From assembly GCA_964448725.1 (NCBI GenBank), contig CAYVAJ010000004.1:17535-81534 (forward strand): DNA of 64,000 nt, given 5' to 3'. Below are positions 655-64,000 of the stretch, one piece after another (within the stretch, counting starts at the first letter, position 1; every line of letters starts with the position of its first letter). Source of the DNA: an uncultured Gammaproteobacteria bacterium. Lineage in GTDB: Bacteria; Patescibacteriota; Microgenomatia; Levybacterales; GWA1-39-11. The translations under genes and the position numbers were made by a program. The notes below the pieces were generated by a model. The model was not told the origin of the DNA, did no database searches, and saw nothing but the letters and a program-made list of their open reading frames with translations.

Positions 655-655
655 A

Positions 656-2921: not shown

Positions 2922-4361
2922 TTAACTACGACCATTAGTTAATTTCGGTTCCTCCTTCCAGTAAGGGTTTGCTTGTTCAAAGGTATGTGTTGTTCTATAG
3001 AGTGTTGCTTCATCAAAATGTTTACCGAGTATTTGCATACCGACCGGAAGTCCGTCTACAAATCCAGCAGGTACTGATATTCCTGGAACACCAACAAGAT
3101 TTGCATGTACAGTAAAAATGTCTGACAGATACATTTGTAATGGATCGCTTGTTTTCTCTCCTAATTTCCAAGGGAGAGAAGGAGATGATGGAGTAATCAA
3201 GACATCAACTTTTTCAAACGCTTCATCAAAATCATTTTTCAGAAGCGTTCGGACCTGCATTGCCTTTTTATAATACGCGTCATAGTATCCAGCAGAAAGG
3301 ACATATGTTCCAAGCATAATTCTTCGTTTGGCTTCTTCGCCAAAATCATTGCGTTCATTGCCATAGCGAATACCAGTATATCGTGCAAGATTTGATGATA
3401 CTTCTGCAGTTTGGATTACATAATACACTTCGATTGCATACTGGGTATGCGGAAGGGAAATATCAATTATCTCAGCTCCTTGAGATTCGTAAAATTTGAG
3501 CGCATCATGAATATGATCTTTAATACGAGAATCTAGTCCTTCAATAAAATATTCTTTCGGAACGCCGATTTTTAGTCCTTTTACTCCATTTCCAATATTT
3601 GCAGTATAATCTGGTACATCTTTTGATGGAGTTGTTGCATCCATTGTGTCTCTTCCTGCAGTAACGTTCAATACGAGCGCATTATCTTCAACTGTTTTTG
3701 TAAAGTGTCCAATAGAGTCAAGAGAGGATGCCATTGCAATCACTCCATAGCGACTGACACGTCCGTATGTTGGTTTCAGTCCGACAGTATTGGTAAAGCT
3801 TGCTGGGAGCCGAATAGATCCACCTGTATCAGTACCTGTTGCCATGAGACTCATACCGGCTGCAACAGATGCAGGAGATCCGCTTGATGATCCTCCAGGA
3901 ACGTACTCAGTATTATATGGATTTGCGGTTGCTCCAAAATCTGAGTTCTCTCCACTTGACCCATGTGCCCATGCATCAAGATTTGTTTTGCCTAAAATTA
4001 CTGCCCCTGCATCTTTTAATTTCTTGACAACTGTTCCATCGTATTGCGGGATATAGTGTTCAAGCACTTTTGATGCCGCAGTTGTCCGAATGTCTTTAGT
4101 AACAAACAAATCTTTTAATGCGACTGGAATCCCAAGCAGCGGCTTATCCTTGTCCAAGGTCCGACCTTGGTCAGCACGCAGCTTGTCTGCGGTCTCTGCT
4201 TGTTGTAGCGCTTCTTCTTCAGTTACGGTTAAAAATGCATTAATCTCGGTGTCATATTTTTCAATTTGACCAAGATATGCTTTTGTTAGCTCAACTGCAC
4301 TTATTTCTTTTGCCAGCAATTTCTTTTTTGCGCTAGCTATTGTTAAGTTTTTAGTGTCCAT
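2922..4361 (-). CDS. gatA: Glu-tRNA(Gln) amidotransferase subunit A (amidase signature family); carries an in-frame REP-like palindrome insertion
   Basis: 479 aa. Amidase signature GGSSSGS plus LLGIPVALKD motifs. The palindrome CCAAGGTCCGACCTTGG at 4154-4170 is translated in frame as QGRTLD. Confidence 0.9.
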   Translation of the reverse strand: MDTKNLTIASAKKKLLAKEISAVELTKAYLGQIEKYDTEINAFLTVTEEEALQQAETADKLRADQGRTLDKDKPLLGIPVALKDLFVTKDIRTTAASKVLEHYIPQYDGTVVKKLKDAGAVILGKTNLDAWAHGSSGENSDFGATANPYNTEYVPGGSSSGSPASVAAGMSLMATGTDTGGSIRLPASFTNTVGLKPTYGRVSRYGVIAMASSLDSIGHFTKTVEDNALVLNVTAGRDTMDATTPSKDVPDYTANIGNGVKGLKIGVPKEYFIEGLDSRIKDHIHDALKFYESQGAEIIDISLPHTQYAIEVYYVIQTAEVSSNLARYTGIRYGNERNDFGEEAKRRIMLGTYVLSAGYYDAYYKKAMQVRTLLKNDFDEAFEKVDVLITPSSPSLPWKLGEKTSDPLQMYLSDIFTVHANLVGVPGISVPAGFVDGLPVGMQILGKHFDEATLYRTTHTFEQANPYWKEEPKLTNGRS

Positions 4362-5957: not shown

Positions 5958-7340
5958 TTAAAGAATTTCCTTTCCGGTTAATATCTTTCGTAACTCAAGC
6001 ATGGCTGAGTATGTAGGGAGTATGAATGCAGTGTCTCCTTCAGGTGTCGCTTGTACTAACTCGTTAATTGCTTTTTTAGGATTCTCAAAAATTGTAACTG
6101 TAGAATTGTAATAATCCTTTTCTAGAGAATATTTCATTCGAACCGCCATGTCATATGCTCTGTCACCGGTAACAATGATTTTACCAGCGACATTTACTAA
6201 TTCTTCAAAGTCCACATCCCATATCCAAGATACATCTCGTCCATCAGGAATTCTATCATTCAAGGCAAGTAAAACAGTACAAGGTCGGACCTTGGTATTG
6301 TTTTGTGGTTGTACGGAATTTTTCAGGCTCGTACCAAGGTCCGACCTTGGTATAGTAGTCTCTGTAATAACACTGATTGATTGATTGAATCCAGCGGGGT
6401 TTTTTGAGAGGATCATAAAGAAATCACGATTTTTATAGGTGATTTTTTCTTGTCTTCCAAATGCCGAGGTAAATGACGCAAGTGATTTGCCAATCTCTTT
6501 ATATGAAATGTCAAATGCTTCTCGAGCTGTTTTTAATGCCGCTTGTAAATTGTACATATTATAAGTACCAGCAAGAACGACAGGGATAGATTCATCAATT
6601 TTATCTTTAATGTTTTCATTTGTAAATTTACAATTAGGGCAGGTATATTTTCCTAAATGGGAATATGCAATTTTTGAAAAAAGTAACTTGGTTCCGCATT
6701 GAGGACAATGAGTAGAGTCAGTATCATGGGTAGTTTCTTTTTTTGAAAAGTACTTGTTAGGAATAGAAAAATAAAATGTTTTACTCGTTGTGCTTTTTCT
6801 TAAATATCGTATCTCAGGATCATCTGCATTGAGTATAAGTTGTGTATCAGTTGTTAGCTTTTTCAGTGCTTTTTGCCAATTTCTAGCTATGGTATGTACT
6901 TCTCCATATCGGTCAAGCTGATCACGGAAAAGATTTAACAATACGATTGCGCGAGGAGTCATCTGAGATAATATGCGGGGAAGATTATTTTCGTCAACTT
7001 CAAAAATAGCCACATCATAGCGTAGTTTTCCTGTAACTGAAGCGTAGCGGATTAAGCTTGTTGCAAGTCCATTCACGAGATTTGCTCCTTCTTCGTTTTG
7101 AAAAACACGTAATCCATTTTTCTCTAAAATATGTCGTAAAATTTTAGCTGTTGTTGTTTTACCATTTGTTCCAGCAACAAGAATTATTGATAGATTTTTA
7201 CTGGATAAAAAATCCTGTATAAAGGTGGGATTTACTTGTAATGCAATATGTCCAGGCCAGGTAGAACCGGATCCAAGACCGAATTCTTTTATTACAGCAC
7301 TGGTGAATTTTCCGGCGAAAAATGAAAGTAATGTTTTCAT
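5958..7340 (-). CDS. murT: Mur ligase family protein MurT (lipid II isoglutaminyl synthase); contains two in-frame inverted REP-like palindromes
   Basis: 460 aa. P-loop VAGTNGKTTTAKIL, Cys4 ribbon CPQCGTKL...CPNC typical of MurT, and a C-terminal DUF1727-like region. Palindromes at 6279-6297 and 6332-6352 are translated as NTKVRPCT and IPRSDLGTS. Confidence 0.65.
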   Translation of the reverse strand: MKTLLSFFAGKFTSAVIKEFGLGSGSTWPGHIALQVNPTFIQDFLSSKNLSIILVAGTNGKTTTAKILRHILEKNGLRVFQNEEGANLVNGLATSLIRYASVTGKLRYDVAIFEVDENNLPRILSQMTPRAIVLLNLFRDQLDRYGEVHTIARNWQKALKKLTTDTQLILNADDPEIRYLRKSTTSKTFYFSIPNKYFSKKETTHDTDSTHCPQCGTKLLFSKIAYSHLGKYTCPNCKFTNENIKDKIDESIPVVLAGTYNMYNLQAALKTAREAFDISYKEIGKSLASFTSAFGRQEKITYKNRDFFMILSKNPAGFNQSISVITETTIPRSDLGTSLKNSVQPQNNTKVRPCTVLLALNDRIPDGRDVSWIWDVDFEELVNVAGKIIVTGDRAYDMAVRMKYSLEKDYYNSTVTIFENPKKAINELVQATPEGDTAFILPTYSAMLELRKILTGKEIL

Positions 7341-8349: not shown

Positions 8350-8394
8350 TATTGTACCTCTTTTCAGAATAGAGATATTGTATTATGAGTATGT

Positions 8395-8961
8395 CTAGGA
8401 AGTGAAGTCAACTTTTACGGGTTCACGTTCGCCTGGTTCTGCTTCAAAAAATTCTTCTTCTTTAAAGCCAAAAATATTAGCGATAAATACGGTTGGAATT
8501 GTTTTCAATTTAGTATTATAGGAGAGTACATTTGAATTATAGAATTGACGAGAATATGAAATCTTATTTTCTGTATCTGTCAGTTCTTCTTGTAATTGCT
8601 TGAAGTTATCACTCGCCTTAAGATCGGGATATGCTTCTGCAACTGCAAAAAGAGATTTTAATGCATCTGTCATCATATTATTCGCTTGAGCTTTTTGATG
8701 AGGGGTATTTGCTTTCATGAGGTCGGTGCGAGCTTTGGTAACTTCTTCAAATACTCCTTTTTCATGTTTTGCGTATCCTTTGACAGTCTCTACTAAATTT
8801 GGAATCAGATCAGTACGGCGTTTTAATTGTATGTCAATGCTAGAAAGTGCTTCGCGAATTCGTTCACGCAGAGTAACCAATGAGTTATAGGTGAGCCATA
8901 AAAACACTAATATTGCTACACCAATTCCAATGAGTATGAATGGGAGGCTTAAAAATTCCAT
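8395..8961 (-). CDS. lemA: LemA family protein
   Basis: 188 aa. N-terminal TM helix then the LemA-like pattern [43 protein letters not shown]. Classic LemA-HtpX gene pair. Confidence 0.6.
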
Positions 8962-12893: not shown

Positions 12894-15800
12894 ATGCACT
12901 CCCGCAAAAAAAAGTTTAAAGACTATTGGGAATTCGCTGAACTACAAGACAAAAAAGTCCGCATTGCTATTGCCATCTCTGCTTTAGGACTTTTGCTCTT
13001 TATCGCCTTCGCACTTACTTTTCCTTTTTATGATAATCTCTTTACTCGATTATTTCCGAAATCTCCTTCTCTTGCGGACGTAACAGCTCCAACAGTTGTA
13101 CAGTCAAATACTGCTACCGTTTCTTCTGGGAGTGATGTGTCTATTTCATGGGGGAGTCCAACATCAAATGGAAATTTCCTCATTGCAGTATTAGCAGCGC
13201 AGAGCGGAGATGAAGCATTATCGATATCTCAAGCGCCACAAGGATGGACATTAGTATCGGATACTATTAATGAGGAAGTAAGACAGTGGGTATATGCCTA
13301 TGCGAATGCTCCAGAACAGAGTGGAGAAGTAAAATTCACCCTCTCTTCAGGAGTAAAATCATCACTCGTGGTTGCAGAATATAAAGATGTTGCAAAAGAA
13401 AATGCTATAGAAACTCAGAATTCTTTAGTAGGAAATAATGATTCTCCCACTGGATCTGTTGATCCAAATACTGATTATAATTTAGTAATTGCAGCAGTAA
13501 GTTCGGTTGTAACAAGCAGTGAAAGCGCCAGTTTTAATAATGCTACTAATGACTTTTCTCTTGTAGGTCAAACATCAACAACAGGAGATGCTGTTAATAT
13601 CGCAACTGCATTGTTTAGTTCGTTTGTTGCCAATCAAGAACCTGTTAATAATTCCGTAACTATTGGATCAGGTACTCAATGGATACATACAATGGTAGCT
13701 ATAAAGCCTGTTGTACCTATCCCGACCTATACTCCTATTCCCAGTAAAGAACCAGAACCAACACCAGAGACAGAACCTGAGTTTTTACTTCAAGGATTAG
13801 ATCCTGAAAACACACAACAGAGTGGTCTGAGAAGTCTTGCGCTTGAGAGTACACAAATTTCGGGTACAACCTATTATGTAGATTGTCAAAACGGAAATGA
13901 TAGTAATAATGGAAGATCAGAGGGTGCTGCATGGAAATCATTAAATAAAATTAATAATGCCACATTAAATCCAGGAGATGGAATTCTATTAAAACGAGAT
14001 TGTTCATGGACTGGAACCTTGGATGCTGCGTGGAATGGTACTGCTCAAGAACCTATTACAATCGGTGCATATGGAGAAGGTGTGCTCCCTACGATTAAAT
14101 ATGACGGATCAAAAGGCGGTGGACCAGCTGTTAAAGTATCAGGATCATATGTCGTAATTGATAGTCTGAAAGCTACACTGACCAATCCCAATAGAAGTTC
14201 TGATTGTACATTAGCAGATGGGCAAAAACAGCATTTTGGTTATTATCAAGGCTTTAATTTATCTGGTCATCATCTTACCCTGCAAAACTCAGAGGCTACA
14301 GGCAATTCGTTGGGAGTTTTCACTACAGATTCCAGTCACCATAATAAAATACTGAACAACCATATCCATCATAACGATGGTTTATGGAGAATTGGCCCAA
14401 TTCCTCCAGGATCAATGGGTGGTATGGGTATGAATTTGCATGGCGATGATCATGAAGTTGCACATAATTTCTTTGAAAAAAATGATGCAAATTGTGATCC
14501 CCCAGACCATACGCATAGAGGGTATAGTGCAGCAATTGAGCTATATAATGCTAGTCGTGCGCACGTACATCATAATAAAATGGTAGGACATCGAAAGCAC
14601 TTTGAAATGGGTAAGAATAGCGATGAAATATCTGACGATAATATCTTTGCCTATAATTTAATTGTCAGTAATTTGGCAAATGCAAAAGGTCCTAATATTC
14701 ATGGCGCAGGAAATAAATTCGGTCCTGTTAAAAGGACAACAGTAGTCAATAATACTATATATCTTGTGGGTTCAGGGAATACTCAAGCACTCAATTGTGG
14801 GTGTACAGATGGCGCAACAATACGAAATAATATATTTTGGGCAGAAGAAAAAGTCGCATTTTTTAACGGTACATACACAGAATCTAATAATATTTACTGG
14901 GATAGTGATGGAAATCCAAATGCTCAAAATTTGAGTTTGCACGCTACTTCAAAAAAGACTAATCCGCAGTTTGTGAAGGCTGCTGTCAATGATGGTGACT
15001 TTCGTTTGAAAGCAGGGAGTCCTGCAATTGATGCCGGTATTTCAGTGGGATATGATTTAGACGTTGAAGGAGTATCTGTTCCACAAGGCTCAAAAGTTGA
15101 TATCGGTGCAATTGAATATACTGGTCAGGTTGTAACAACTCCAACCCCAACTGCAAGTACTGTTACCCCTACTCCAGGCGTTCAAGAACCATTCAGTGGT
15201 TCACGGATTTCGCTTCCAGGTACCATCCAAGCAGAAGATTTTGATAATGGCGGTGCTACTGTTGCATATGTTGATAATGATACAGGCAACAATGGGAATA
15301 TATATAGACAAACAGATGTTGATATTGAGGCTACGACTGACACTGGGGGAGGGTATAATCTTGGCTGGACTCGGCCAGGTGAGTGGGTAGAATATAGCGT
15401 TAATGTCTCATACTCAGGTTCTTACACGATAGGAACACGAGTAGCATCAAATGGAGGCGGCGGAGTATTTCATATAGAAGTTGATGGTACAGATGTAACT
15501 GGTCCAATGACCGTGCCAAATACAGGAGGTAATCAAATTTGGCAGACAGTTGAAAAAACAGGTGTACAGCTTACTGCAGGACAACATATTGTTCGTCTCT
15601 CATTTGATAATAATGGCGCAACTCAAGGTGTAGGCAATTTTAATTATATGACCTTTACTTTTGATCCTGGTCCTCAAACGCCGTACACAGGTACTCCTAT
15701 TTCTCTTCCAGGCATAATACAAGCTGAAGACTTTGATAATGGGGGTGTTATGGCTGCTTATTTTGATCAAGATGCAGGCAACAAGGGTAATGTGTATAGG

Positions 15801-18800
15801 GAAACAGATGTTGATATAGAAGCAACGACTGACACTGGTGGAGGGTATAACCTTGCTTGGATGTGGCCTAATGAATGGGTAGAGTATACAGTAAATGTAA
15901 CAGAAACAAGTACATATACCGTTGGAGCACGAGTCGCCTCCAATGGAGGTGGGGGAGTGTTTCATATAGAAGTTGATGGGCAAGATGTAACCGGTTCAAT
16001 GACTGTCCCGAGCACAGGAGGAAATCAGGTTTGGCAAACAGTTGAAAAAACCGGAATTCAATTAAGTGCTGGACAGCATATTATCCGATTGTCAATGGAT
16101 AGCAGTGGAGCACAGCAAGGAATTGCCAATTTTAATTATCTAGAATTTACTCAAGACACATCTACTAGTCCAGTACCATCCACCTCACAGGAATATACAT
16201 TATCCGGATCAGTATATGTCGATGTAAATAGAAATGGGGTAAAAGATACTGATGAATTAGGCCATAACGGAGCTGAGGTTACGGTATCAGGCGGATTATC
16301 AGCTAGTACCAATGCATCCGGGCTTTATACATTAACAGTTCCTGCTGCAGTATATACTGTTACTATTACCATACCTGATGGATATGAGGGAACAACTACA
16401 AATCCATTGTCTATTTCAGTCTCTGCAAATACTTCGGCGAACTTTGGTATTGCCCCAACAGCTACTGGAGGTAGAACAAATTCTGTCTTCACAGTGAATG
16501 CAGCTAAGACAGGTACTGAATTGAATGGACAACCTTTTCAAGTTGTTGGTATTCGTGTATCAAATGCACTTATTAATGACGCTAAAACACAACAACTCAT
16601 AGATAACCTTGATGTATTCAGAACTTATGGTATTAATACCGTTAGCGTTTTCTTCCAAGGTTCACGATTTGGTGACATCAAAGGCTATAGAGAAGATACA
16701 ACACTAAATCCTACCTACGCTGCTCGGATGGCACGAATTATTGAAGAAGCTGATAAACGTAAGATGGTCGTTCTAGTGGGAGTTTTGTATTATGGCGATG
16801 CAACCTTTGCAAAATGGGATAGTTGGGGACAAACTGAGGCAAACAGTGCAGTTGCTAATACTGTTCAGTGGCTCAAAGATAATAATTATCGCAATGTATT
16901 TATCGATGTTGATAACGAACAAATGTCACCGTTTGATAGTCAAAAACTCATTGCAGCTGGAAAAGCAGTTGATGCATCCTATGTAATTGGTTCTGGTGGC
17001 AAAATAACGCCATCAAATGCTGACCTATCTTTGCACCAAGGAGGCAAAAATATAACCGGTAAACCATATATTGAATCTGAAGGAACACCGCAAGGATATT
17101 GGGGTGCATATAGCAGACAGTCAGGAGACACACAATATCGAAATATTGGCATTTATACGAGTGATTTAAAATCTGCATGGTTGTCTGAAACTTCTAGTTT
17201 ATTGAATCAAGGAAAAGGATATATGGGTGCATCAACCTGGTTACAGGCCGACCTTCCAGAGGGACCAAATCACATACCTGGTGGAAATGGGACATCAGCA
17301 GATCCTGGGATTAAATTCTGGTTAGAGCATGTAAAGAGTTTGGTTGGGCCGTATGAGCCATCAGGTATTGGAGAGGAGACTACTCCAACCCCAACTCCAA
17401 GTGCTATTACCCCTACTCCTACTCAACCACCAACTGGGGGAACAGGGGCATTTTTGGAAAACAACGGTCAGCTAGTTATTGAGGTAGAGGATTATAATGA
17501 TATTTTTCCATCTACATTTAATAACTATACACAAACACACAATTGGGAAAAGAAAACAAATATTCCAGACTATAGTGGAAGCGGATTTATGCATAATATA
17601 CCAGATGAGCGAGGAGAGGATGGAGTAGGTCCTAATTCACCTCGAGGAAAAGGTGGACCTGAAATGCGGTATCCAATCAAGATATCAACTCCTGGAACAT
17701 ACAATGTCTGGGTAAGAGGGTATACTACGGGAGGAGAGTCAAACGGAGTACATATCGGGGTTGATGGGGTAATGACAGGTACAGAAGCTGGAGCTTCAAA
17801 TATGTCAGGGTTTAGACCTAAAGAATCGTGGATTTGGGAAAGTGCAAGAAAAGAAGGATATACGCTCCCTGCAACTCTCAATCTTACTGCTGGTTATCAT
17901 ACACTTAATGTCTGGGGAAGAGATGATGGATTTAGAATGGATAAAATAGTATTACGAATAGGAAGTGGTGTCCCATCAGGGACAGGACCTGCCCAGAGTG
18001 CGCGAGAAGCCATACCAACTCCAATAATTACACCAACTCCCACACCTGTGGTTACCACAACTCCCACACCTACTCCAAGTGTTCAAGCACCATTTACGGG
18101 AACTCCTATTTCGTTACCTGGAACAATCCAGGTAGAAGACTTTGATAATGGTGGTGCAAATGTTGCGTACTTTGATACGTCAGCAGGTAATAACGGTGGA
18201 GTATATCGAGATACAGATGTTGATCTTCAAGCTACTACTGATACTGGAGGAGGATATGGTCTTGAGTTTACAAGATCTGGAGAATGGTTAGAGTACACTG
18301 TAGATGTTGCTGAGGGCGGTACTTATGATATTGGTGTACGTGTTGCCTCTAAAGTAGTTGGTGGTGCATTCCATATAGAGATTGATGGGCAAGATGTAAC
18401 TGGGCCGATGTATGTACCAAATACTGGTGATTGGCAAACATGGACAACAATCGAGAAAACAGGTATACAGCTTACTGCAGGAGAACATGTAGTCAGATTA
18501 TCATTAGATAGCAGTGGTGAGCAGGCAGCTATTGGAAATATCAACTATATTACATTCACGAAAGTTGTCACAATTCCTACCTATACACTCTCAGGTACTG
18601 TATATGTAGATGCAAATAATAATGGTATACAAGATACAGATGAGGCTGATTATGCAAATGCAATTATTGAACTTTATGAAGGACCTGAAGCGACAGATAT
18701 TCCTTACCACACAGCAGAAACCAATACAGCCGGAGCGTATACTTTCAACACATTAAATCAAGGAGTATACACAGTATCACTTCTAATTCCTGATGGATAC

Positions 18801-21800
18801 AGTGTTACTACAGCTATCCGTCAAGTAGTCTCGCTTACAGCAGATACTATAGTGAATTTTGGTATCGCATCCACACAAACACCTACTATTACTCCTACTC
18901 CTGTAAGTCCTTCAAATCTTCTAAAGAATGGAGGTCTTGAGAGTAGCACTACTGTTTGGGGGTTATATGGGGGTGCAAGTATAATGCAAGGTACTTCACA
19001 TGGTGGTAGTAAAGCTATTCGTGTAGGTAATGCAAGTGGTGGGGGTGAATCAGGTGCCGAGCAAGCTGTTGCTGCACAGCCAGGAAAGACATACTCACTT
19101 ACTGCCTGGGGTATGATGAGTAATTCAGCTCAGAGTGATAAAGGCGCTGTGGGTATTAAATTTAAGAACAGTGCAGGAGATGTTCTTGGTAATGAAACAT
19201 CCATCTTTATTCCTGAGACTGATTGGACTCAGAAACAAGTGTCTGCAATTGCACCTGCTAACACGGCAAGCGTTGTAACTTATGTATATAAAGAAGTGGG
19301 AGATAATACTTTCTTATACATTGATGACTTTACGCTTACAGAAAGCGGAGAAGTTACTACTCCAACCCCAACATTGACAAATACTCCGACACCTACTGTT
19401 GCACAAAATACACCGACTCCAACGCCAGTACAACTATCTGATTTAGTAGTTAGTGATATAACATGGAGTCCATCTAATGCTACTGTAGGACAAAATGTTA
19501 CTTTTGGTGCTACCTTAAGAAATATTGGATCAGCTGCAACTCCTGATGCAACTGCCCATGGAGTAGCGTTTTATGTGAATGGAGTAAAAGTATCTTGGTC
19601 GATAAATCATAATGCGTCTATTGCACCAGGTGACTCAGTAACAGTCACTGCTAATGGTGGTCCTGAAGGTTCACGATTCTGGACAGCGACAGCAGGTACA
19701 CATGAAATTGAGGCAGTAGTTGATGAGCCTGGCAGGATTACGGAAAGTAATGAGGAAAATAATACTGCAAGCAACCAATTTACCATTGTTGCTGCTCCTA
19801 CGGTTACTCCGACTCCGACATCTGTTCCTACTTACACAGTAGATGGAACTGTATATGTAGATACAAATAAAAATGGTGTGCAAGATACAGATGAGGCAGG
19901 GTATGCAGATGCAGTTGTTATGATATCAACTAACCCTGAAACAGCAGGTATAAGCGATGAAAATGGGCGTTTTATTCTTACTGGAATAAATCAAGGAGTA
20001 TACACAGTTACTCTTTCCGCACCTAATGGGTATACTATCACGACTTCCAATCCAATTGAAGCAGTTGTAACTGCAAATACTACAATCAATTTTGGAATCG
20101 GTCTTATTCCAACTCCAACCCCTACAGCTCCTGTTATAACGCCTACATTAACAACAACTCCTACCCCTACTGCAACAGCTACTCCGATTCCAACTGTTAC
20201 TCCTCTTCCTACGGGTACTCAGTCAGTAACATACTCGGTCCCATGGACAAGTGAAGATGTACAAGAAACAAATACATCATTTACGGTAAATGACACCACT
20301 CTTCGAATTGGTGGATGCGGACAGACAGCTTGTTATACTGGTCTTCGGTTTACGAATATTAACCTGCCTAAAGGTTCTATAATTAATTCTGCATATGTAG
20401 AGTACAATGCAGCCCAAAGTAACTCACTTGCAAATGTAGCGGTAGAGATTGCAGGACATGATTCGGATAATAGTTCGCTTTTCTCTTCATCCAATAAACC
20501 TTCACAAAGAACACTTACAGCTGCTAAAGTGACTCCTCAAACTGATACAGTAGTTGCTGCTAATCAGTGGTATCGTTTAGGTAATATCTCATCAATAGTG
20601 CAAGAAGTCATAGATAGAGACAATTGGCAAACTGGAAATAGTATTTCACTTATTATTCGTGCTACATCTCCAACAGAGCAAGATACAGGAATTCTTGCAC
20701 ATAGTTACGATGGAAATTCTGAGAGAGCACCACGCTTAGTAATTATATATAGTAGTCCGATAGGCGGAGAAGAACCAACAAATACTCCTGTCCCTATTAC
20801 AGAGCCTACTGAAGCACCTATTCCAACGTATATTCTTTCAGGTACTGTCTATGTAGATACCAATAAAAACGGCGTAAAAGATATAGAAGAATCAGGTCAA
20901 AGTAATATAACAGTATCTCTGTCAAATGGAGCATCGGTTTCAACTGATGCACAAGGTAGATATCAATTTACTGATTTAATCCAAGAACTCTATACTGTAA
21001 CTGCAACAGTACCAAATGGATATACATTGACTACTCAGTCATCAATCCCTGTATCACTTATAGCTGATACAAGTGTACACTTTGGAATGGTACAAGTACC
21101 AATAGCCACGGTAACTGCAACATCTGCACCAACCCCTACCCCTATTCCATGTTCACTTGTATCAGCCAAATGGCAAACAACCAATAATCAAATAGATGAA
21201 GGTGAGATTGTAGGACTTGAAGTTATAACCTCAGGAAACTGTGTTGGAGAAGAGCTGGAGTTTGAGGTACGAGAGGACGATGGAATTATGGGGTCTGATG
21301 CAACAAATATTATTCCAGCAACAGTACCAATAATCGGAAATAACGCACAGACTTCATGGATAGTTGAATGGCAGCAGGATTGTATGGGATTTGCACTTTG
21401 CCAAACTCCGGAATATTACTATATTGTTAGAATTGTGGGAACCACAACTGAGATACGCTCAACAAATCCAACACTTAAAGTGCAGCGTACCAACAAAGCA
21501 CGGTTTGTGACTATTCCTCATGTGGATGTGACTCAAGATACTGTGAAAATTACATGGAAGACAAGCCATGATATGTCATCACAGATTAGCTATGGATTAT
21601 CTGCAGAATCCCTTGTAAGTACAGATGAGATAAATACCAATATACGAGCAGCTGATCATGCTATTACAATTGACAACTTACTTCCTTGTACTGCGTATCG
21701 GTATCAGGTACGTTCACGGGAAATAACTGGTGATATGGTAGAGAGCCCTTTTGCTCAATTTATAACAAAAGGTTGTGAAGGAAACTCGTCAGTACTTGCA

Positions 21801-22514
21801 TTATCTACCACTGATGTTGATCCTGCTAGTGGAGGAGTTGTAGAGTTAATAGATGAGGAAACAGATAAGGGTATATTGCTCCAGGTGCCTGCTGGGTTTA
21901 GCAGTCGGCCAGCACAATTCCAAATGAAAAAATTAGAACAATCTCCTGTATTATCAGAATTATCTGTACCATCAGGAAGGTCACTCGTTGGATCACACAT
22001 TTATAACTTAGCTGCACTAACAAATATTTCATCAAAATCAGCAACTTTTGAAGAACCGATCTTAGTTACGATAAATTATTTGCCATCTGAAGTATCTAAT
22101 CTTGCAACATTGGCTATGTATCGTAATAATGGACAGCAATGGACACAGTTAGAAAACTGTACACATAACCAAACAGAAGCTTCAATTTCCTGTAATACTA
22201 CTGCATTCTCGGTATTTGCTCTATTCTCTGAAACACCTGCTAGTGAGACAAATCAACCGCCTAAAAACCAAAACTCAAATTCATCTGGAGGAAATTCTTC
22301 AACTGGGGGATCAGGAGGTTCTTCAGGAGACTCTTCAGGTGGTTCATCAAGTACTGCAAACGGACCAGATTTGAATAAAGATGGAAAAATAAATATTTTC
22401 GACCTTAGTATATTGTTAAGCCAATGGAATAGATCAGGGAGCGGTGACTTGAATAATGATGGAAAAGTGAACATCTTTGATCTCTCACAGCTTCTTGTAA
22501 AATGGACTCGGTAG
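12894..22514 (+). CDS. Giant (3206 aa) secreted or surface multidomain carbohydrate-binding/active protein with a C-terminal dockerin
   Basis: Single uninterrupted frame. Features read from the translation: N-terminal TM helix; parallel beta-helix-like region (NNHIHHNDG...); three CBM6/CBM35-like repeats; four Cna-B/SdrD-like modules (Y.LSG.VYVD.N.NG..DTDE); a GH-A (TIM-barrel glycosidase)-like segment; a CARDB-like module; an FN3-like module; Pro/Thr linkers; a C-terminal double dockerin repeat. Confidence 0.8.
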   Translation: MHSRKKKFKDYWEFAELQDKKVRIAIAISALGLLLFIAFALTFPFYDNLFTRLFPKSPSLADVTAPTVVQSNTATVSSGSDVSISWGSPTSNGNFLIAVLAAQSGDEALSISQAPQGWTLVSDTINEEVRQWVYAYANAPEQSGEVKFTLSSGVKSSLVVAEYKDVAKENAIETQNSLVGNNDSPTGSVDPNTDYNLVIAAVSSVVTSSESASFNNATNDFSLVGQTSTTGDAVNIATALFSSFVANQEPVNNSVTIGSGTQWIHTMVAIKPVVPIPTYTPIPSKEPEPTPETEPEFLLQGLDPENTQQSGLRSLALESTQISGTTYYVDCQNGNDSNNGRSEGAAWKSLNKINNATLNPGDGILLKRDCSWTGTLDAAWNGTAQEPITIGAYGEGVLPTIKYDGSKGGGPAVKVSGSYVVIDSLKATLTNPNRSSDCTLADGQKQHFGYYQGFNLSGHHLTLQNSEATGNSLGVFTTDSSHHNKILNNHIHHNDGLWRIGPIPPGSMGGMGMNLHGDDHEVAHNFFEKNDANCDPPDHTHRGYSAAIELYNASRAHVHHNKMVGHRKHFEMGKNSDEISDDNIFAYNLIVSNLANAKGPNIHGAGNKFGPVKRTTVVNNTIYLVGSGNTQALNCGCTDGATIRNNIFWAEEKVAFFNGTYTESNNIYWDSDGNPNAQNLSLHATSKKTNPQFVKAAVNDGDFRLKAGSPAIDAGISVGYDLDVEGVSVPQGSKVDIGAIEYTGQVVTTPTPTASTVTPTPGVQEPFSGSRISLPGTIQAEDFDNGGATVAYVDNDTGNNGNIYRQTDVDIEATTDTGGGYNLGWTRPGEWVEYSVNVSYSGSYTIGTRVASNGGGGVFHIEVDGTDVTGPMTVPNTGGNQIWQTVEKTGVQLTAGQHIVRLSFDNNGATQGVGNFNYMTFTFDPGPQTPYTGTPISLPGIIQAEDFDNGGVMAAYFDQDAGNKGNVYRETDVDIEATTDTGGGYNLAWMWPNEWVEYTVNVTETSTYTVGARVASNGGGGVFHIEVDGQDVTGSMTVPSTGGNQVWQTVEKTGIQLSAGQHIIRLSMDSSGAQQGIANFNYLEFTQDTSTSPVPSTSQEYTLSGSVYVDVNRNGVKDTDELGHNGAEVTVSGGLSASTNASGLYTLTVPAAVYTVTITIPDGYEGTTTNPLSISVSANTSANFGIAPTATGGRTNSVFTVNAAKTGTELNGQPFQVVGIRVSNALINDAKTQQLIDNLDVFRTYGINTVSVFFQGSRFGDIKGYREDTTLNPTYAARMARIIEEADKRKMVVLVGVLYYGDATFAKWDSWGQTEANSAVANTVQWLKDNNYRNVFIDVDNEQMSPFDSQKLIAAGKAVDASYVIGSGGKITPSNADLSLHQGGKNITGKPYIESEGTPQGYWGAYSRQSGDTQYRNIGIYTSDLKSAWLSETSSLLNQGKGYMGASTWLQADLPEGPNHIPGGNGTSADPGIKFWLEHVKSLVGPYEPSGIGEETTPTPTPSAITPTPTQPPTGGTGAFLENNGQLVIEVEDYNDIFPSTFNNYTQTHNWEKKTNIPDYSGSGFMHNIPDERGEDGVGPNSPRGKGGPEMRYPIKISTPGTYNVWVRGYTTGGESNGVHIGVDGVMTGTEAGASNMSGFRPKESWIWESARKEGYTLPATLNLTAGYHTLNVWGRDDGFRMDKIVLRIGSGVPSGTGPAQSAREAIPTPIITPTPTPVVTTTPTPTPSVQAPFTGTPISLPGTIQVEDFDNGGANVAYFDTSAGNNGGVYRDTDVDLQATTDTGGGYGLEFTRSGEWLEYTVDVAEGGTYDIGVRVASKVVGGAFHIEIDGQDVTGPMYVPNTGDWQTWTTIEKTGIQLTAGEHVVRLSLDSSGEQAAIGNINYITFTKVVTIPTYTLSGTVYVDANNNGIQDTDEADYANAIIELYEGPEATDIPYHTAETNTAGAYTFNTLNQGVYTVSLLIPDGYSVTTAIRQVVSLTADTIVNFGIASTQTPTITPTPVSPSNLLKNGGLESSTTVWGLYGGASIMQGTSHGGSKAIRVGNASGGGESGAEQAVAAQPGKTYSLTAWGMMSNSAQSDKGAVGIKFKNSAGDVLGNETSIFIPETDWTQKQVSAIAPANTASVVTYVYKEVGDNTFLYIDDFTLTESGEVTTPTPTLTNTPTPTVAQNTPTPTPVQLSDLVVSDITWSPSNATVGQNVTFGATLRNIGSAATPDATAHGVAFYVNGVKVSWSINHNASIAPGDSVTVTANGGPEGSRFWTATAGTHEIEAVVDEPGRITESNEENNTASNQFTIVAAPTVTPTPTSVPTYTVDGTVYVDTNKNGVQDTDEAGYADAVVMISTNPETAGISDENGRFILTGINQGVYTVTLSAPNGYTITTSNPIEAVVTANTTINFGIGLIPTPTPTAPVITPTLTTTPTPTATATPIPTVTPLPTGTQSVTYSVPWTSEDVQETNTSFTVNDTTLRIGGCGQTACYTGLRFTNINLPKGSIINSAYVEYNAAQSNSLANVAVEIAGHDSDNSSLFSSSNKPSQRTLTAAKVTPQTDTVVAANQWYRLGNISSIVQEVIDRDNWQTGNSISLIIRATSPTEQDTGILAHSYDGNSERAPRLVIIYSSPIGGEEPTNTPVPITEPTEAPIPTYILSGTVYVDTNKNGVKDIEESGQSNITVSLSNGASVSTDAQGRYQFTDLIQELYTVTATVPNGYTLTTQSSIPVSLIADTSVHFGMVQVPIATVTATSAPTPTPIPCSLVSAKWQTTNNQIDEGEIVGLEVITSGNCVGEELEFEVREDDGIMGSDATNIIPATVPIIGNNAQTSWIVEWQQDCMGFALCQTPEYYYIVRIVGTTTEIRSTNPTLKVQRTNKARFVTIPHVDVTQDTVKITWKTSHDMSSQISYGLSAESLVSTDEINTNIRAADHAITIDNLLPCTAYRYQVRSREITGDMVESPFAQFITKGCEGNSSVLALSTTDVDPASGGVVELIDEETDKGILLQVPAGFSSRPAQFQMKKLEQSPVLSELSVPSGRSLVGSHIYNLAALTNISSKSATFEEPILVTINYLPSEVSNLATLAMYRNNGQQWTQLENCTHNQTEASISCNTTAFSVFALFSETPASETNQPPKNQNSNSSGGNSSTGGSGGSSGDSSGGSSSTANGPDLNKDGKINIFDLSILLSQWNRSGSGDLNNDGKVNIFDLSQLLVKWTR
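15207..15662 (+). repeat. CBM6/CBM35-like module, copy 1 (within the giant ORF)
   Basis: ISLPGTIQAEDFDNGG...GGGYNLGWTRPGEWVEYSVNV...GGGGVFHIEVDG...NFNYMTFTF. The copies are about 60-70% identical. Confidence 0.5.
15699..16152 (+). repeat. CBM6/CBM35-like module, copy 2
   Basis: ISLPGIIQAEDFDNGG...GGGYNLAWMWPNEWVEYTVNV...GGGGVFHIEVDG...NFNYLEFT. Confidence 0.5.
18108..18563 (+). repeat. CBM6/CBM35-like module, copy 3
   Basis: ISLPGTIQVEDFDNGG...GGGYGLEFTRSGEWLEYTVDV...GGAFHIEIDG...NINYITFTK. Confidence 0.5.
22368..22511 (+). other. Dockerin-like module (two Ca-binding repeats) at the C-terminus of the giant protein
   Basis: DLNKDGKINIFDLSILLSQW...DLNNDGKVNIFDLSQLLVKW matches the dockerin type-I duplicated D.N.DG.VN..D pattern. 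Confidence 0.6.
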
Positions 22515-59329: not shown

Positions 59330-61309
59330 ATGAAATTTAAAGTAGCTTCAAAATTTCAACCAACAGGAGATCAGCCAAAAGCAATCGAACAGCTGACAAA
59401 GGGTATTCTGAAAGGCGAAAAAGAACAAGTTTTACTGGGCGTAACTGGAAGCGGCAAGACATTTAGCATTGCCAATGTAGTCGAGCGTACCCAACGTCCA
59501 ATGCTGGTTATCTCTCATAATAAAACACTTGCGGCTCAACTGTACCAGGAACTTCGAGATTTCTTTCCAGATAATGCAGTATCCTACTTTGTGTCATATT
59601 ATGATTACTATCAGCCAGAAGCATATATTCCAACAACTGATACGTATATTGCAAAAGAGACTCAAATAAACGAGGAAATTGATAAATTACGTCTTGCTTC
59701 AACCACAAATATATTAACCCGTACTGATACCATAGTTGTTGCCTCAGTGTCGAGTATCTACAATCTCGGTTCTCCAACTGAGTATGGAAAGAGAATCCTT
59801 CCTTTGGCAGTTGGCGATGCAGCAGATCGCCGAAATGTGATGGACAGACTCATTGACTTAATGTATGACCGTAATGATTATAATTTTGCCCGAGGAAGCT
59901 TTCGAGTGAGAGGTGAAGTAATAGAAATATTTCCAGCATATGAAGACATTATTAAACGTGTTGTCATTGAAGAGGGAGTAGTACAGAAAATTGAGCACCT
60001 TGATCCAACAACTGGTGAATTTCTCAAATCAGCAGACAGGATGGTATTATACCCGGCAAAACACTATGTAACTGAAAAGAGTACATACGATGAAATATTT
60101 AAACGAATTCGTCATGAGCTTGCACAAAGAATTAAAGAATTAGAGTCACAAGGAAAAATGCTTGAGGCTCATCGTATTCGTCAACGCACCGAGTATGATA
60201 TTAAGATGCTTAAAGAGCTGGGGTATGTGAACGGGATTGAGAATTATTCTCGCTATTTTGACGGACGAAAACCAGGTGAAGCACCGTTCTCTTTACTTGA
60301 GTTCTTTAATAAAGCATATGGAGACGAGTGGATGCTAATGGTTGATGAATCACATATTACATTGCCACAGATTCGTGGTATGTACAATGGTGATAGGTCT
60401 CGCAAAGAAGTACTTATTGACTACGGATTTAGACTGCCATCTGCATTTGATAACCGCCCGTTAACATTTGATGAGTTTAAAGAGCGGGTTCATCAAACAA
60501 TTTATGTATCCGCGACTCCAAACGATTGGGAATTAGAACGTGCCGGAAAAAATAATATTGCAGAACAGCTGATCAGACCAACAGGAATTGTTGATCCTAA
60601 AGTAATCGTAAGACCATCAGAGGGGCAGATTCCTGATTTACTCAATGAAATCACTGAGGCAGTAGCGCGAAAAGAACGTGTACTCGTTACCACACTAACC
60701 AAACGTATGTCAGAGGATTTAACTACCTATTTGGAAGAACAGGGAGTACGAGTTCAGTATCTGCATTCAGAGGTAGACACTTTGCAACGGCAAGATATTC
60801 TTGATGATTTACGATTAGGAACCTATGATGTTGTTGTGGGAATTAACCTGCTTCGTGAAGGACTTGATCTGCCTGAAGTATCTCTTGTTGCGATCTTGGA
60901 TGCTGACAAAGAGGGATTCTTACGCTCACGCTCATCACTGATACAGATTATGGGTAGAGCAGCTCGCCGTGTTGATTCACGAGTAATTTTGTATGCTGAT
61001 AACCACACTGATTCTATGAAAGCTGCAATAGCAGAAGTCGAACGCCGCCGTGAGTATCAACTTGCATACAATAAAGAGCATGGTATTACTCCAAAAACAG
61101 TTGAGAAAGAAGTACGCAAAAAATTAATTGAAAAAGAAGATGTGATCGATGAACTTGCGCCAATGATGGATAAAGAGGTCTTACTTCCAGATCAACGGGA
61201 AAAACTCATTAAACGTCTCCGCACTGAAATGAAAGAAGCTGCCAAGTCCCTAGACTTCGAAACAGCAGCCCTCCTCCGCGACAAAATCCGCTACCTCCAA
61301 CAATCTTAA
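59330..61309 (+). CDS. uvrB: Excinuclease ABC subunit B
   Basis: 659 aa. FKVASKFQPTGDQPKAIEQL...GVTGSGKTF. Helicase motifs. C-terminal UVR domain LLRDKIRYLQQ. Confidence 0.9.
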   Translation: MKFKVASKFQPTGDQPKAIEQLTKGILKGEKEQVLLGVTGSGKTFSIANVVERTQRPMLVISHNKTLAAQLYQELRDFFPDNAVSYFVSYYDYYQPEAYIPTTDTYIAKETQINEEIDKLRLASTTNILTRTDTIVVASVSSIYNLGSPTEYGKRILPLAVGDAADRRNVMDRLIDLMYDRNDYNFARGSFRVRGEVIEIFPAYEDIIKRVVIEEGVVQKIEHLDPTTGEFLKSADRMVLYPAKHYVTEKSTYDEIFKRIRHELAQRIKELESQGKMLEAHRIRQRTEYDIKMLKELGYVNGIENYSRYFDGRKPGEAPFSLLEFFNKAYGDEWMLMVDESHITLPQIRGMYNGDRSRKEVLIDYGFRLPSAFDNRPLTFDEFKERVHQTIYVSATPNDWELERAGKNNIAEQLIRPTGIVDPKVIVRPSEGQIPDLLNEITEAVARKERVLVTTLTKRMSEDLTTYLEEQGVRVQYLHSEVDTLQRQDILDDLRLGTYDVVVGINLLREGLDLPEVSLVAILDADKEGFLRSRSSLIQIMGRAARRVDSRVILYADNHTDSMKAAIAEVERRREYQLAYNKEHGITPKTVEKEVRKKLIEKEDVIDELAPMMDKEVLLPDQREKLIKRLRTEMKEAAKSLDFETAALLRDKIRYLQQS

Positions 61310-61323
61310 CCTTCATCCTCCAG

Positions 61324-61344
61324 ACCAAGGTCCGACCTTGGTCA
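61324..61344. repeat. REP-like perfect palindrome GACCAAGGTC-C-GACCTTGGTC (3' flank of the RAYT gene)
   Basis: Direct reading. The same palindrome family occurs at 62058-62077, 4154-4170, 6279-6297 and 6332-6352, with a degenerate copy at 61641-61655. Confidence 0.7.
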
Positions 61345-62010
61345 AGAATCTTCAAGTAGTAGTGGTCCGAGTATTTCTTCAGAGTTTTGATTAAAATCAT
61401 CTACAAATTTTTTATACTCATTCTGTGGAACAGCTTCAGAGTTTCCAGCAAAGTACTGGAGAATATCATCAGGATTTAGCCATGATGCACGCTTTAGTCC
61501 TAAAAAATTTGCATAGCTTGTGTATTTTGTGAAATCGATTTCAGAGTGTATATATGTTGGATTTAAATGAATATACCGAGTTAAATGAAGAAGATATTGA
61601 TCTGAGTCTATAATGCATGCTTTATATTTATTCTGAAACAAAGGTCCGACCCTGTCATATTTTTTATTAAAATACATTACGTATGCGGTCATCAATCGTC
61701 GCATAAGTTTTGTGATTCCGTTTGCTGTGATTTGTTTTACCAATAGGTGTATATGATTTGGCATTAAACAAAATGAAACAAGTACAACTTCTTCAGAAAG
61801 ATTAGATAAAAGAAATCTTAATTTGCGTTTAGGATTAACATTTATGTCTTGAATGAGGTCAAGTTTTGGTTGTAAATAAAGTTTTAAGTAAAAAAGAAAG
61901 ACAGCACAATCAGATTCATCAAGAAAAATAGTTCGCTTTTCAATCCCACGGTTATAAATATGGTAATAAGAATTCTCAAGATATGTTTTTACTACATTCC
62001 GAGCAGGCAT
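61342..62010 (-). mobile_element. HUH Y1 transposase, IS200/IS605 TnpA-like / REP-associated tyrosine transposase (RAYT)
   Basis: 222 aa. YHIYNRG... and HuH motif PNHIHLLV with a downstream catalytic Tyr region (QNKY). REP-like palindromes lie immediately at both ends of the gene. Confidence 0.7.
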
Positions 62011-62057
62011 ATTCTTGTTTCATTATGCTCCTTTTTACCATATAAATGTCAATATTG

Positions 62058-62077
62058 GACAAGGTCCGACCTTGGTC
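62058..62077. repeat. REP-like palindrome GACAAGGTCCGACCTTGGTC (5' flank of the RAYT gene)
   Basis: Direct reading. Followed by GGTCAAG as at the 61324 copy. Confidence 0.7.
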
Positions 62078-62157
62078 AAGTTGGAGTGAGGCGGTGGGTA
62101 GGGAGGTGATGTGCCGGGAAGGGGTTGCCTTCCCGGATTGGTGCTGTTTAATCGTTC

Positions 62158-62652
62158 CTAATTTCCTGAAATTAGGTCTTCAAGCAGTACACTTGACTGT
62201 AGGAGAGATTGTGCAATCTCTCCGTCAAGTTCTTTGTTCAGATCACTCAGGAGAGTGATAAACATTCGGTGTTCTTGATCCGGTATTGTCAATGTCCATT
62301 TATGATCATCTCCTCTTCTATGTGAGTAACACAACTCATACTCACCCACTTTTTGAGTGGTATAGTGCCAATAAGCACTGATTGTGATCTCTGGATAACG
62401 AATAGTTGATCCAAGAATACGAAGCTGTTCTTCAGCTCCAGCAAATGGGAAGACCCAGGTGTAATCGTGCATATGCTCTTGCCAATGATTTCCGGGAAAT
62501 CGTACGATATCCTCGTTGATCATCCGGAACTTTCTATATGCATCCCAAGCCCTCAGTGATGTGAGCATAGCTATTTCTTCTGGTGTCAAGACAATAGGCA
62601 GCTTTAGACACGCAGAGATCGCTTCCATGCGCACAATGATGGGATTTGGCAT
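62158..62652 (-). CDS. Hypothetical protein (GC-richer segment adjacent to RAYT)
   Basis: 164-aa ORF. A perfect hairpin CCGGGAAGG-GGTTG-CCTTCCCGG sits at 62120-62142 just downstream. Confidence 0.35.
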   Translation of the reverse strand: MPNPIIVRMEAISACLKLPIVLTPEEIAMLTSLRAWDAYRKFRMINEDIVRFPGNHWQEHMHDYTWVFPFAGAEEQLRILGSTIRYPEITISAYWHYTTQKVGEYELCYSHRRGDDHKWTLTIPDQEHRMFITLLSDLNKELDGEIAQSLLQSSVLLEDLISGN

Positions 62653-62891
62653 AATCCACCTCCTGAAATATTAACGAACAAGATGGAGTGAATATATCAA
62701 ATACCATAGTATTATGCAATTATTATCAGTCACTATATATCACTGCTTGTTTTTCGCTTGTGAATTGGTCTATAATGGACTGTTTAACTTTTCTCATGCT
62801 GATAAATTGCTAGACGGTTGAATTGTTTTATTGATGGAGAGTAAATGAAAAACAATATAACCATAAAACAATTGAGCAATGGGCCTAAAAC

Positions 62892-64000
62892 ATGATAGAT
62901 ACTATTGTAATCAAGGGTGCACGTGAGCATAACCTCAAAGATATTGACTTGGAAATTCCTAAGTATAAGCTGGTAGTTTTTACCGGATTGTCTGGGAGTG
63001 GCAAGAGCTCGCTTGCTTTTGACACGATTTATGCTGAGGGACAACGCAGGTATGTAGAATCACTATCATCATATGCCCGTCAATTTTTAGGAGTTATGAA
63101 AAAGCCTGATGTCGACTTGATCGAAGGATTATCTCCAGCTATATCCATAGATCAGAAAAGCACATCACATAATCCTCGCTCAACAGTTGGTACTGTAACT
63201 GAAATTTATGATTATCTACGGCTCTTATACGCACGTGTCGGACATCCACACTGTCCTAACTGCGGACGAGAAATTTCACGAATTACCAAAGAACAAGTCG
63301 TAGAAGAAATTGTCACAAAATTCATTGGAATCACACCCACTCGCATTATGATTTTAGCGCCAATTGTCAAAGGACGGCGTGGAGAGTACACAGATCTTTT
63401 CCGTGATCTCAAAAAAAGAGGATACCAACGTGTCAGAATCGATGGACGTGTTTATTCACTTGATGAGGACTTAGTACTCATTAAGACCAATAAACATACA
63501 ATCGATGCTATTGTTGATCGAGTTACTCTCTCAAAAGATTATGATCGACAGCGGTTAGTTGAATCAGTCGAACAAGGACTCGCACTGGGAAATGGCGAGG
63601 TCATTATCACGAAGGTGACTGATGAGTCATTTAGTTTTCCGGAAAAACCGACTGAGATGGAAGACACATTGTATTCACAAAAATTTGCGTGTCCTGCGTG
63701 TGGCATCGCATTTGAAGAAATAGAACCCCGTTTGTTTTCATTTAATTCACCGTATGGTGCTTGTCCCCGCTGTAACGGGCTTGGTACTCGCCATGATGTT
63801 GATGAAACTCTCATCCTCAATCCTGAGCTAACTATCGCTGAAGGAGGAATTTTGGCTCTTGCGAATATTTATGACAAAGAGACCTGGTTTGGTCGTACTG
63901 TCCGTACCGCATTGGAAGAGAATAATGTACCGATGGATTTACTTATCAAGCATTTAACTGACGAACAGCGAAATATTTTGTTATATGGAACAGGAGACAG
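62892..64000 (+). CDS. uvrA: Excinuclease ABC subunit A (partial; continues beyond window end)
   Basis: ATG at 62892. [66 protein letters not shown] is a canonical UvrA N-terminus. The frame is open to the window end. Not in the ORF track because it is truncated. Confidence 0.85.

Follow-up and report, generated by a model that had tools for sequence, protein, structure and literature searches.

A gene lying between uvrB and uvrA in a 64,000-nucleotide stretch of Microgenomates DNA (positions 17,535 to 81,534 of contig CAYVAJ010000004.1, GenBank assembly GCA_964448725.1; hereafter the window) probably forms, together with a short palindrome found at both of its ends, a REPtron-like unit, that is, a single-copy, vertically inherited and domesticated class 2 TnpA-Y1 gene with a cognate 21-bp repetitive extragenic palindrome (REP). 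The protein resembles the REP-associated tyrosine transposases (RAYTs), and its host in this reading is a Daviesbacteria-like lineage of the Microgenomates, within the candidate phyla radiation (CPR). A Y1 fold, an intact set of HuH and tyrosine residues, flanking palindromes that covary with the gene, dispersed singlets and inverted doublets of the palindrome, and deep conservation of the locus are all present. A preliminary description of this locus as a RAYT-like gene bracketed by REPs is confirmed as an observation, and its interpretation as a REPtron is supported by the evidence laid out below.

A class 2 TnpA-Y1 protein with a RAYT-like fold

The open reading frame (ORF; 61342..62010, minus strand) encodes the 222-aa protein with HuH and tyrosine motifs that had been proposed, and the suggested profile check returns Pfam Y1_Tnp (PF01797, "Transposase IS200 like") at 43.1 bits against a cut-off of 23 (E = 5.6e-11), a family matched by all 25 aligned homologs as well. 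Alignment places the HuH motif, P-N-H-I-H-L, at residues 84-89 (codons 61744..61761, minus strand) and the catalytic tyrosine motif, R-Y-I-H-L-N-P, at residues 145-151 (codons 61558..61578, minus strand). H86, H88 and Y146 are invariant across the 25 sequences, the HuH motif aligns with mPDHVHLL of ISDra2 TnpA, and Y146 aligns with Y132 of the same enzyme.

Sequence searches of the PDB gave a spurious match to HI1480 and nothing else when the single protein was used, and weak ISDra2 matches with the family profile, so a comparison of folds was required. The AlphaFold model of the 222-aa protein has a pLDDT of 85.9, and its best PDB match in Foldseek is 4ER8 (E = 2e-5, TMt 0.60), the RAYT of Escherichia coli in complex with a REP hairpin; next come 2A6O, 2VJV and 2XMA (IS608, ISDra2 and IS200 transposases). 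The protein thus has the TnpA fold, the HuH motif and the single catalytic tyrosine on a C-terminal helix that together define the Y1_Tnp/TnpA-Y1 HUH superfamily. A structure predicted for the C-terminal tail alone reached a pLDDT of 60 and was not used.

Within this superfamily a Y---NP tyrosine motif is the signature of class 2 TnpA-Y1 proteins (Quentin et al. 2018, PMC6006769), and YIHLNP places the protein in that class. Subclass 2.1 is characterized by NHVH or NH[YF]H, by W[EQ] or FQ, by YIELNP or Y[IV]HLNP and by an SS in the proximal tail (PMC6006769); the corresponding features here are NHIH (NH[IF]H in the family), LFQ, YIHLNP and a tail of F-S164-S165-Y in a protein of about 220 aa. 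By motifs alone, then, the protein fits subclass 2.1, equivalent to group 1 of Bertels and to the TIRYT group of De Nocera. The C-terminal helix-turn-helix (HTH) or Bac_DnaA_C domain that is a trait of subgroup 2.1.2 gave no Pfam match at E <= 0.05 in 25 members. The traits of subclass 1.1, that of IS200, are absent, with YIHLNP in place of Y[IV]ENQ and 222 aa against about 150 aa, and among NCBIfam families the only one matched at E <= 0.01 is REP_Tyr_transpos (NF047646).

The protein belongs to a large family, since 7,826 of 8,000 scored candidates match at E <= 1e-5, and the source names of its homologs include Daviesbacteria, Curtissbacteria, Levybacteria, Shapirobacteria and Gottesmanbacteria. 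A search of plasmids returned only genes labelled "transposase" at ~25-36% identity.

Flanking palindromes that covary with the gene

The REP at the 3' end of the gene (61323..61343) is GACCAAGGTCCGACCTTGGTC, a perfect 10+1+10 palindrome that can be written GACCAAGGTC-C-GACCTTGGTC. It begins 14 nt past the uvrB stop codon, overlaps the stop codon of the RAYT-like gene by 2 nt and occupies the 32-nt gap between these two convergent genes. The REP at the 5' end (62058..62077), GACAAGGTCCGACCTTGGTC, lies 48 nt upstream of the start codon and reads GACAAGGTC-C-GACCTTGGTC, one C being absent from its left arm. The two bracketing palindromes of the preliminary description are therefore both present, the 3' copy being perfect as claimed and the 5' copy not; the position given for the 5' copy was correct, and that of the 3' copy was one base too high. 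Both copies stand in direct (the same) orientation, each is followed by AAG, and they have a 21-nt exact direct repeat, CAAGGTCCGACCTTGGTCAAG, in common. Folded as single-stranded DNA (ssDNA), the 3' REP reaches -9.1 kcal/mol (z = -5.0) and the 5' REP -6.4 kcal/mol (z = -2.7).

This arrangement recurs in a survey of 80 loci from species-representative genomes, where the same palindrome typically stands before the gene (median -48 nt) and after it (median +11 nt), and where the palindrome itself varies from genome to genome, as in CAAGGTCTAACCTTG, CAAGGGGGGCCCTTG, GAGGTGGCACCTC and AAGGCCTGGCCTT. In 52 of 71 homologous Patescibacteria loci (~73%) the two flanks are identical over a run of at least 12 nt, against 13 of 692 comparisons (1.9%) in a cross-locus control. 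Such covariation of gene and palindrome is the pattern expected of a protein that recognises its own hairpin. A REP could be identified in 55 loci (~12 kb each), and 11 of these hold further copies far from the gene, 16 in all, where ~0 would be expected.

A degenerate REP had also been reported inside the gene. The sequence in question, AAGGTCCGACCCTG, does exist at 61641, and the segment around it (61633..61653, minus strand) consists of the codons of a conserved R-V-G-P-L-F-Q motif in which R120, G122, L124 and F125 are invariant in the family alignment. It forms no hairpin as ssDNA (-1.3 kcal/mol, z = +0.3). Only in the window and its two closest relatives does this segment match the local REP over 11-13 nt; in a set of 46 loci it matches the REP of its own locus over a mean of 6.98 nt and the REPs of other loci over 6.70 nt. 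A functional internal REP or operator is ruled out by the lack of a fold, the invariant motif that the segment encodes and the lack of covariation across the family, and we treat the segment as coding sequence that resembles the REP by chance in one clade.

Dispersed copies inside genes

The palindromes are not unique to this locus; uniqueness would have spoken against the proposed REP. A search of the window for the 17-mer with up to 3 mismatches finds five sites where shuffled sequences predict 0.04; two of them flank the RAYT-like gene and three lie elsewhere, in gatA and murT. Because all three dispersed copies in the window are inside genes, "extragenic" is a misnomer here.

The copy in gatA (gene 2922..4361, minus strand; REP 4152..4172) is in frame and encodes D-Q-G-R-T-L-D. 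At this site most GatA homologs have 5 residues fewer, and a 96%-identical GatA (P0241) retains the peptide; the copy is old and predates the split from the strain carrying that protein. The two copies in murT (gene 5958..7340, minus strand) form an inverted, REPIN-like pair (6277..6352), one at 6277-6297 with a central G and the other at 6332-6352 with a central C, separated by a 34-nt spacer. As ssDNA the pair folds into an 18-bp stem (-20.7 kcal/mol, z = -5.8), so that inverted REPs, a short spacer and one long hairpin, the features by which a REPIN is recognized, are all found. The pair encodes ~23 extra residues, RSDLGTSLKNSVQPQNNTKVRPC, exactly at the site of the doublet. These residues are missing from the closest homologs (P0122, P0125 and P0126, ~70% identical) and from MurT of Staphylococcus aureus, and the doublet is therefore lineage-specific rather than ancient. 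MurT P0127 carries a comparable insertion whose sequence, RSDLD...QGPTF, is the same palindrome read in other frames.

The doublet loop (alignment columns 340-395) holds independent insertions of 15-30 aa in the MurT proteins P0123, P0124, P0127 and P0134, and a second variable site (columns 447-463) reads QNSKLKSQNYN in P0124 and QNSKFKTQNFN in P0164; both sites look like hot spots for repeat-derived peptides. In a relative, at L204, the RAYT gene is flanked by a different palindrome, GTCAAGAACCGATCTTGAC, and the MurT and GatA loops encoded there (murT 4501-5898, gatA 7285-8736) weakly resemble that palindrome at the homologous sites, at 10-12 of 16-17 positions. This likeness, an observation in which L004 is grouped with L204, may reflect old copies that have changed along with the local repeat family, or chance.

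Beyond the window, the exact 17-mer CCAAGGTC-S-GACCTTGG occurs in at least 120 metagenome contigs, and among the contigs listed 10 carry a RAYT homolog. Among the matches listed, the palindrome flanks a RAYT homolog on both sides at L106, L168 and L198 and on one side at L090; the remaining copies are solo, with many doublets 22-29 nt apart, and of the 80 copies in contigs of up to 46% G+C, 28 are buried 30 codons or more within ORFs of at least 120 aa. These intragenic copies are read as QGRTL, QGPTL, RSDLG or KVRPW. Pfam scans of ten REP-bearing ORFs bear these out as real genes, with strong domain matches in nine: a class-V aminotransferase (Aminotran_5), MnmA, a GT4 glycosyltransferase, TsaD, two UvrC proteins, a class I tRNA synthetase, an HI0933-like oxidoreductase and a Mur ligase. 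The repeat falls within the domain envelope or between domains in at least 5 of the nine.

In the two uvrC genes (L157, 1130-2407, and L173, 27-1520) the palindrome stands in frame between the GIY-YIG and the UVR/RNase H regions, which recalls the position of the RAYT-like gene beside uvrA and uvrB as well as published work in which intragenic REPs were found in excess in genes for excision repair. At L106 the palindrome is found, again in frame (QGRTL, at ~868), inside the RAYT homolog itself (393-1067, minus strand), in the variable loop that links its first helix to the HuH strand, and the same palindrome flanks this gene at 365 and 1076.

A long-held place between uvrA and uvrB

In the window uvrB (59330..61309, plus strand; Pfam UvrB_inter, UvrB and UVR domains) is convergent with the RAYT-like gene, and the 5' part of uvrA (62892..64000, plus strand), which runs off the end of the window and was identified from its translation, is divergent from it; the UvrA domains themselves were found on the gene call of a related locus, L081. 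The RAYT-like gene does lie between uvrB and uvrA, in the company of an orphan ORF, as the preliminary description had it. The arrangement is old and conserved, however, and is not a recent split of the two repair genes: the order uvrA-(variable ORFs)-gene-uvrB, for which a comparison of relatives had been proposed, recurs at L082, L205, L208 and L207 (Daviesbacteria), where the proteins are 78%, 58%, 57% and 56% identical to that of the window, and the REP core CAAGGTCGGACCTTG is kept upstream of the gene at L207 and L208. Since the order is kept down to 56% protein identity, the gene has long been at the uvrA/uvrB locus in this one lineage. The same order is absent from the Curtissbacteria and Shapirobacteria examples and from all 80 GTDB loci.

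The gene has one copy in the window. Where a genome holds paralogs, these are 36-68% identical, and two paralogs in one genome (L029 and L033) each have a different palindrome of their own. Copies of IS200 within a genome are ~99% identical (PMC6006769), and diverged paralogs are the pattern of class 2 and RAYT genes, unlike that of IS200 copies. The divergence of the paralogs, the flanking palindromes and the kept position thus point to a vertically inherited RAYT/REP system and not to an active IS200.

Several of the syntenic relatives have features of their own. In the ~100 nt next to the gene on each side, L205, L207 and L208 have three tandem small palindromes upstream (AGGTnnCACCT, CCAAGGTCGGACCTTG and AAGGTnCAACCTT) and an inverted repeat, ATGTTCAGGT...ACCTGAACAT, that encloses the whole unit in the manner of a TIRtron and has no counterpart around the copy in the window. 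The RAYT of L205 (P0068), at the same uvrA/uvrB locus, has an in-frame 35-aa insertion (~3400-3505) between its HuH and tyrosine motifs, made up of G+C-rich hairpins such as CCCCGCTGC-TT-GCAGCGGGG, a repeat family that differs from its own flanking palindromes.

Weighing the evidence

Several observations weigh against reading the locus as a REPtron. The match to NF047646 scores 36 bits, under the equivalog cut-off of 80, and the protein is therefore RAYT-like and not an equivalog of the proteobacterial enzyme; its subclass 2.1-like motifs, moreover, are those of a group reported to be without nearby REP-like sequences (Quentin et al. 2018, PMC6006769). No GTAG or GTGG tetranucleotide foot stands beside any of the copies in the window, and no conserved asymmetric flank, cleavage tag or guide tag was found beside the REP in 136 unique instances. 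The orientation of a palindrome this close to perfect can be read only from its central base, at which the two flanking palindromes of L083 differ. In 38 of 52 loci the flanking copies have the direct orientation seen at the ends of IS200/IS605 elements, and this layout differs from the inverted pair described for the E. coli REPtron. Copy density, at ~1 per 20-35 kb, is far below that of classic REP and REPIN populations. In gatA the insertion origin of the copy is less cleanly shown, because in two relatives (P0242 and P0243, 80-83% identity) a loop of equal length has no REP peptide. The proposed link of the proteobacterial REP-RAYT type is nevertheless supported, by covariation, 4ER8 as the best fold match and the conserved position, with the low NF047646 score and the missing GTAG as caveats.

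If the palindromes were instead host cis-elements, and the protein were fully exapted and mobilised nothing, the dispersed copies would be ancient relics, and the flanking ones might serve as an operator of the gene, as a bidirectional attenuator between uvrB and the gene, or as a site of ssDNA processing or repair. Much at the locus is in keeping with this explanation: promoter-like hexamers coincide in part with the 5' copy, the gap between the convergent uvrB and RAYT-like genes is taken up by the 3' copy, copy density is low, the gatA copy is older than the split from the strain with 96%-identical GatA, linkage to uvrA and uvrB is tight and ancient, and REP-carrying uvrC genes occur in two metagenome contigs. 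The murT doublet, however, is absent from the nearest homologs and hence lineage-specific; the match between genome-specific palindromes on the two sides of the gene requires ongoing homogenisation or turnover; and the same exact 17-mer in loops of many unrelated genes is hard to square with cis-regulation. Nor do the palindromes qualify as intrinsic terminators, a role that we rejected because no T-run follows the hairpins and the terminator scan calls none. We regard this explanation as unlikely.

An autonomous IS200-type element, consisting of tnpA alone with same-strand hairpins at its ends, moving by peel-and-paste and leaving solo ends or derivatives like miniature inverted-repeat transposable elements as the dispersed palindromes, would suit the direct flanks seen here and in 38 of 52 loci (the end geometry of IS608 and ISDra2), the name of the Pfam family and the other neighbourhoods found in Curtissbacteria, Shapirobacteria and all 80 GTDB loci, but we disfavour an active element of this kind as very unlikely given the one copy in the window, paralogs at 36-68% rather than ~99% identity, a class 2 YIHLNP motif in place of Y[IV]ENQ, a length of 222 aa, conserved C-terminal tail included, where IS200 transposases have ~152 aa, the exclusive NCBIfam match to REP_Tyr_transpos at E <= 0.01, a uvrA/uvrB position kept down to 56% identity and the absence of tnpB.

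Comparison with known systems

REP/RAYT systems (REPtrons; TnpA-REP of E. coli and REPIN-RAYT of Pseudomonas) are reportedly the subject of Nunvar 2010, Bertels & Rainey 2011, Ton-Hoang 2012 and Messing 2012 (4ER8). The REPtron-like unit described here is similar to them in having a single- or low-copy HUH/tyrosine gene with a Y---NP motif, flanked by a short palindrome of its own that is also dispersed as singlets and inverted doublets, with a separate palindrome family for each paralog, vertical inheritance and 4ER8 as the best structural match. It is unlike them in missing the NCBIfam RAYT cut-off, in lacking a GT[AG]G foot, in having a near-perfect 10+1+10 palindrome without bulges, mostly direct flanking copies and a low copy density, and in a dispersal that is largely within coding sequences of a patescibacterial, not a proteobacterial, host.

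Subclass 2.1 and TIRYT proteins are a second point of comparison. The likeness extends to NH[IVYF]H, to FQ replacing WQ or WE, to Y[IV]HLNP, to a length of ~220-240 aa, to the SS tail (F-S-S-Y here), to low copy number and to diverged paralogs. The TIRtrons described by De Nocera et al. 2013 (PMC3733652) have terminal inverted repeats (TIRs) with partial or complete self-complementarity that make up families of moderate abundance, in dimers, and this description is close to what is seen here; the Daviesbacteria-like loci L205, L207 and L208 have an outer TIR, ATGTTCAGGT...ACCTGAACAT. In contrast to subclass 2.1, for which none are reported (PMC6006769), palindromes accompany ~73% of the loci here; the tails of 25 members give no Bac_DnaA_C or HTH match in Pfam, and no GGGGWSAS motif was seen. 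With TnpA of IS200/IS605 elements (IS608, ISDra2 and IS200) the protein shares its fold and catalytic motifs, and the locus shares same-strand hairpins at both ends, whereas the class 2 tyrosine motif, the longer protein, the lack of tnpB, the diverged paralogs and the conserved locus set it apart.

For the copies inside genes the closest parallels lie elsewhere. Rickettsia palindromic elements (RPEs) are said to go back to Ogata 2000. In-frame palindromes or dimers in housekeeping genes, adding ~7-30 residues in loops, are common to these elements, to intragenic REPs and to the copies found here. Intragenic REPs, including those in excision-repair genes, have been described for GTAG and CGTC REPs and for Rickettsia RPEs (PMC3733652), and the UvrC copies at L157 and L173 hit the same kind of target; REPs inside tnpA-REP genes have been described for subclass 2.4 (Quentin 2018, PMC6006769), as at L106. 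Unlike RPEs and CGTC REPs, the repeat here belongs to the family CCAAGGTC-S-GACCTTGG, is found in another host phylum and has an identifiable cognate Y1 gene.

How the unit may work

The biochemistry of IS608 and ISDra2 TnpA and of the E. coli RAYT is established (PDB 4ER8, 2VJV and 2XMA), and by analogy with these paradigms the protein of the REPtron-like unit would bind, cleave and transpose. The palindrome would be extruded as a hairpin on ssDNA, for example on the lagging-strand template, and a dimer of the RAYT-like protein would bind it. A metal held by the HuH motif, together with Tyr146, could then cut and rejoin the strand beside the hairpin through a 5'-phosphotyrosyl intermediate, and this cutting and rejoining would occasionally copy REP singlets or doublets to new sites. 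Because the genome has almost no intergenic space, the insertions that survive would presumably be those that add multiples of three bases in surface loops.

Bound at the 5' palindrome, the protein may also autoregulate its own gene. We consider this plausible because the 5' palindrome overlaps or abuts promoter-like hexamers (62047..62079, minus strand, from a consensus scan). In TTGACC-N17-AATATT, with 9 of 12 consensus matches, a score no higher than shuffled sequence gives for the region, the 5' REP forms the 17-nt spacer, and a TTGACA at 62047-62052, just 3' of the 5' REP, is conserved at L082 and L083. At L205, L207 and L208 a homologous TTGACG-N17-TAnnAT has a small palindrome as its spacer.

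Other features of the locus

A 164-aa ORF (62158..62652, minus strand) separates the RAYT-like gene from uvrA. It is an ORFan, for which a search of 1.84 billion representative proteins returns only itself, and its slot is taken in relatives by an apparently unrelated 201-aa ORF (L082), by a 182-aa ORF (L205), by three small ORFs (L208) or by nothing (L207). Because unrelated ORFs replace it, or none does, in syntenic relatives, we place it outside the unit and rule it out as a partner protein.

Three distinct, unique and perfect hairpins, CCGGGAAGG-5-CCTTCCCGG, CCTAATTTC-2-GAAATTAGG and GGAGAGATTG-2-CAATCTCTCC, are packed into 110 nt (62114-62223) at or just past the 3' end of this ORF, and the interval 61323-62223 holds 4 of the 13 perfect hairpins of at least 9 bp in the window. 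The segment 62080-62140 is unusually rich in G+C, in a window with 37% G+C overall, and an Rfam scan of 61200-62900 found no RNA family at E <= 1. Farther away, 12894-22514 (plus strand) is a single ORF of 3,206 aa; giant ORFs are often seen in CPR genomes.

Implications for RAYT-type genes in CPR bacteria

Most characterised REP/RAYT systems are proteobacterial, and some come from Cyanobacteria and Bacteroidetes. A literature search found no paper that combines RAYT or REPIN terms with Patescibacteria, and a single paper in which the candidate phyla radiation and repetitive extragenic palindromes are both named, one time each and outside its title and abstract. What is new here is a CPR-wide member of the RAYT/TIRYT-REP kind whose palindrome is atypical in having no tag and is found to a marked degree inside genes. 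Ultra-small CPR genomes carry a large and conserved RAYT-type family with cognate palindromes, and these would persist mainly as in-frame insertions in housekeeping genes. For annotation this means that extra loops in MurT, GatA, TsaD, MnmA and UvrC would be repeat-derived and not lineage-specific protein features, and for classification that REPs here accompany a protein resembling subclass 2.1.

The conserved uvrA-RAYT-uvrB linkage provides a concrete hypothesis for what retains domesticated RAYTs in genomes. A broader proposal, which we put forward tentatively and think doubtful as it stands, is that a Patescibacteria-wide clade of subclass 2.1-like Y1 proteins (>7,800 homologs) keeps tag-less palindromes whose main niche is the surface loops of essential proteins, and that its uvrA/uvrB-locked lineage has gone beyond mere selfish persistence. 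If this were true, the uvrA/uvrB-locked gene would point to a host function in ssDNA processing or excision repair.

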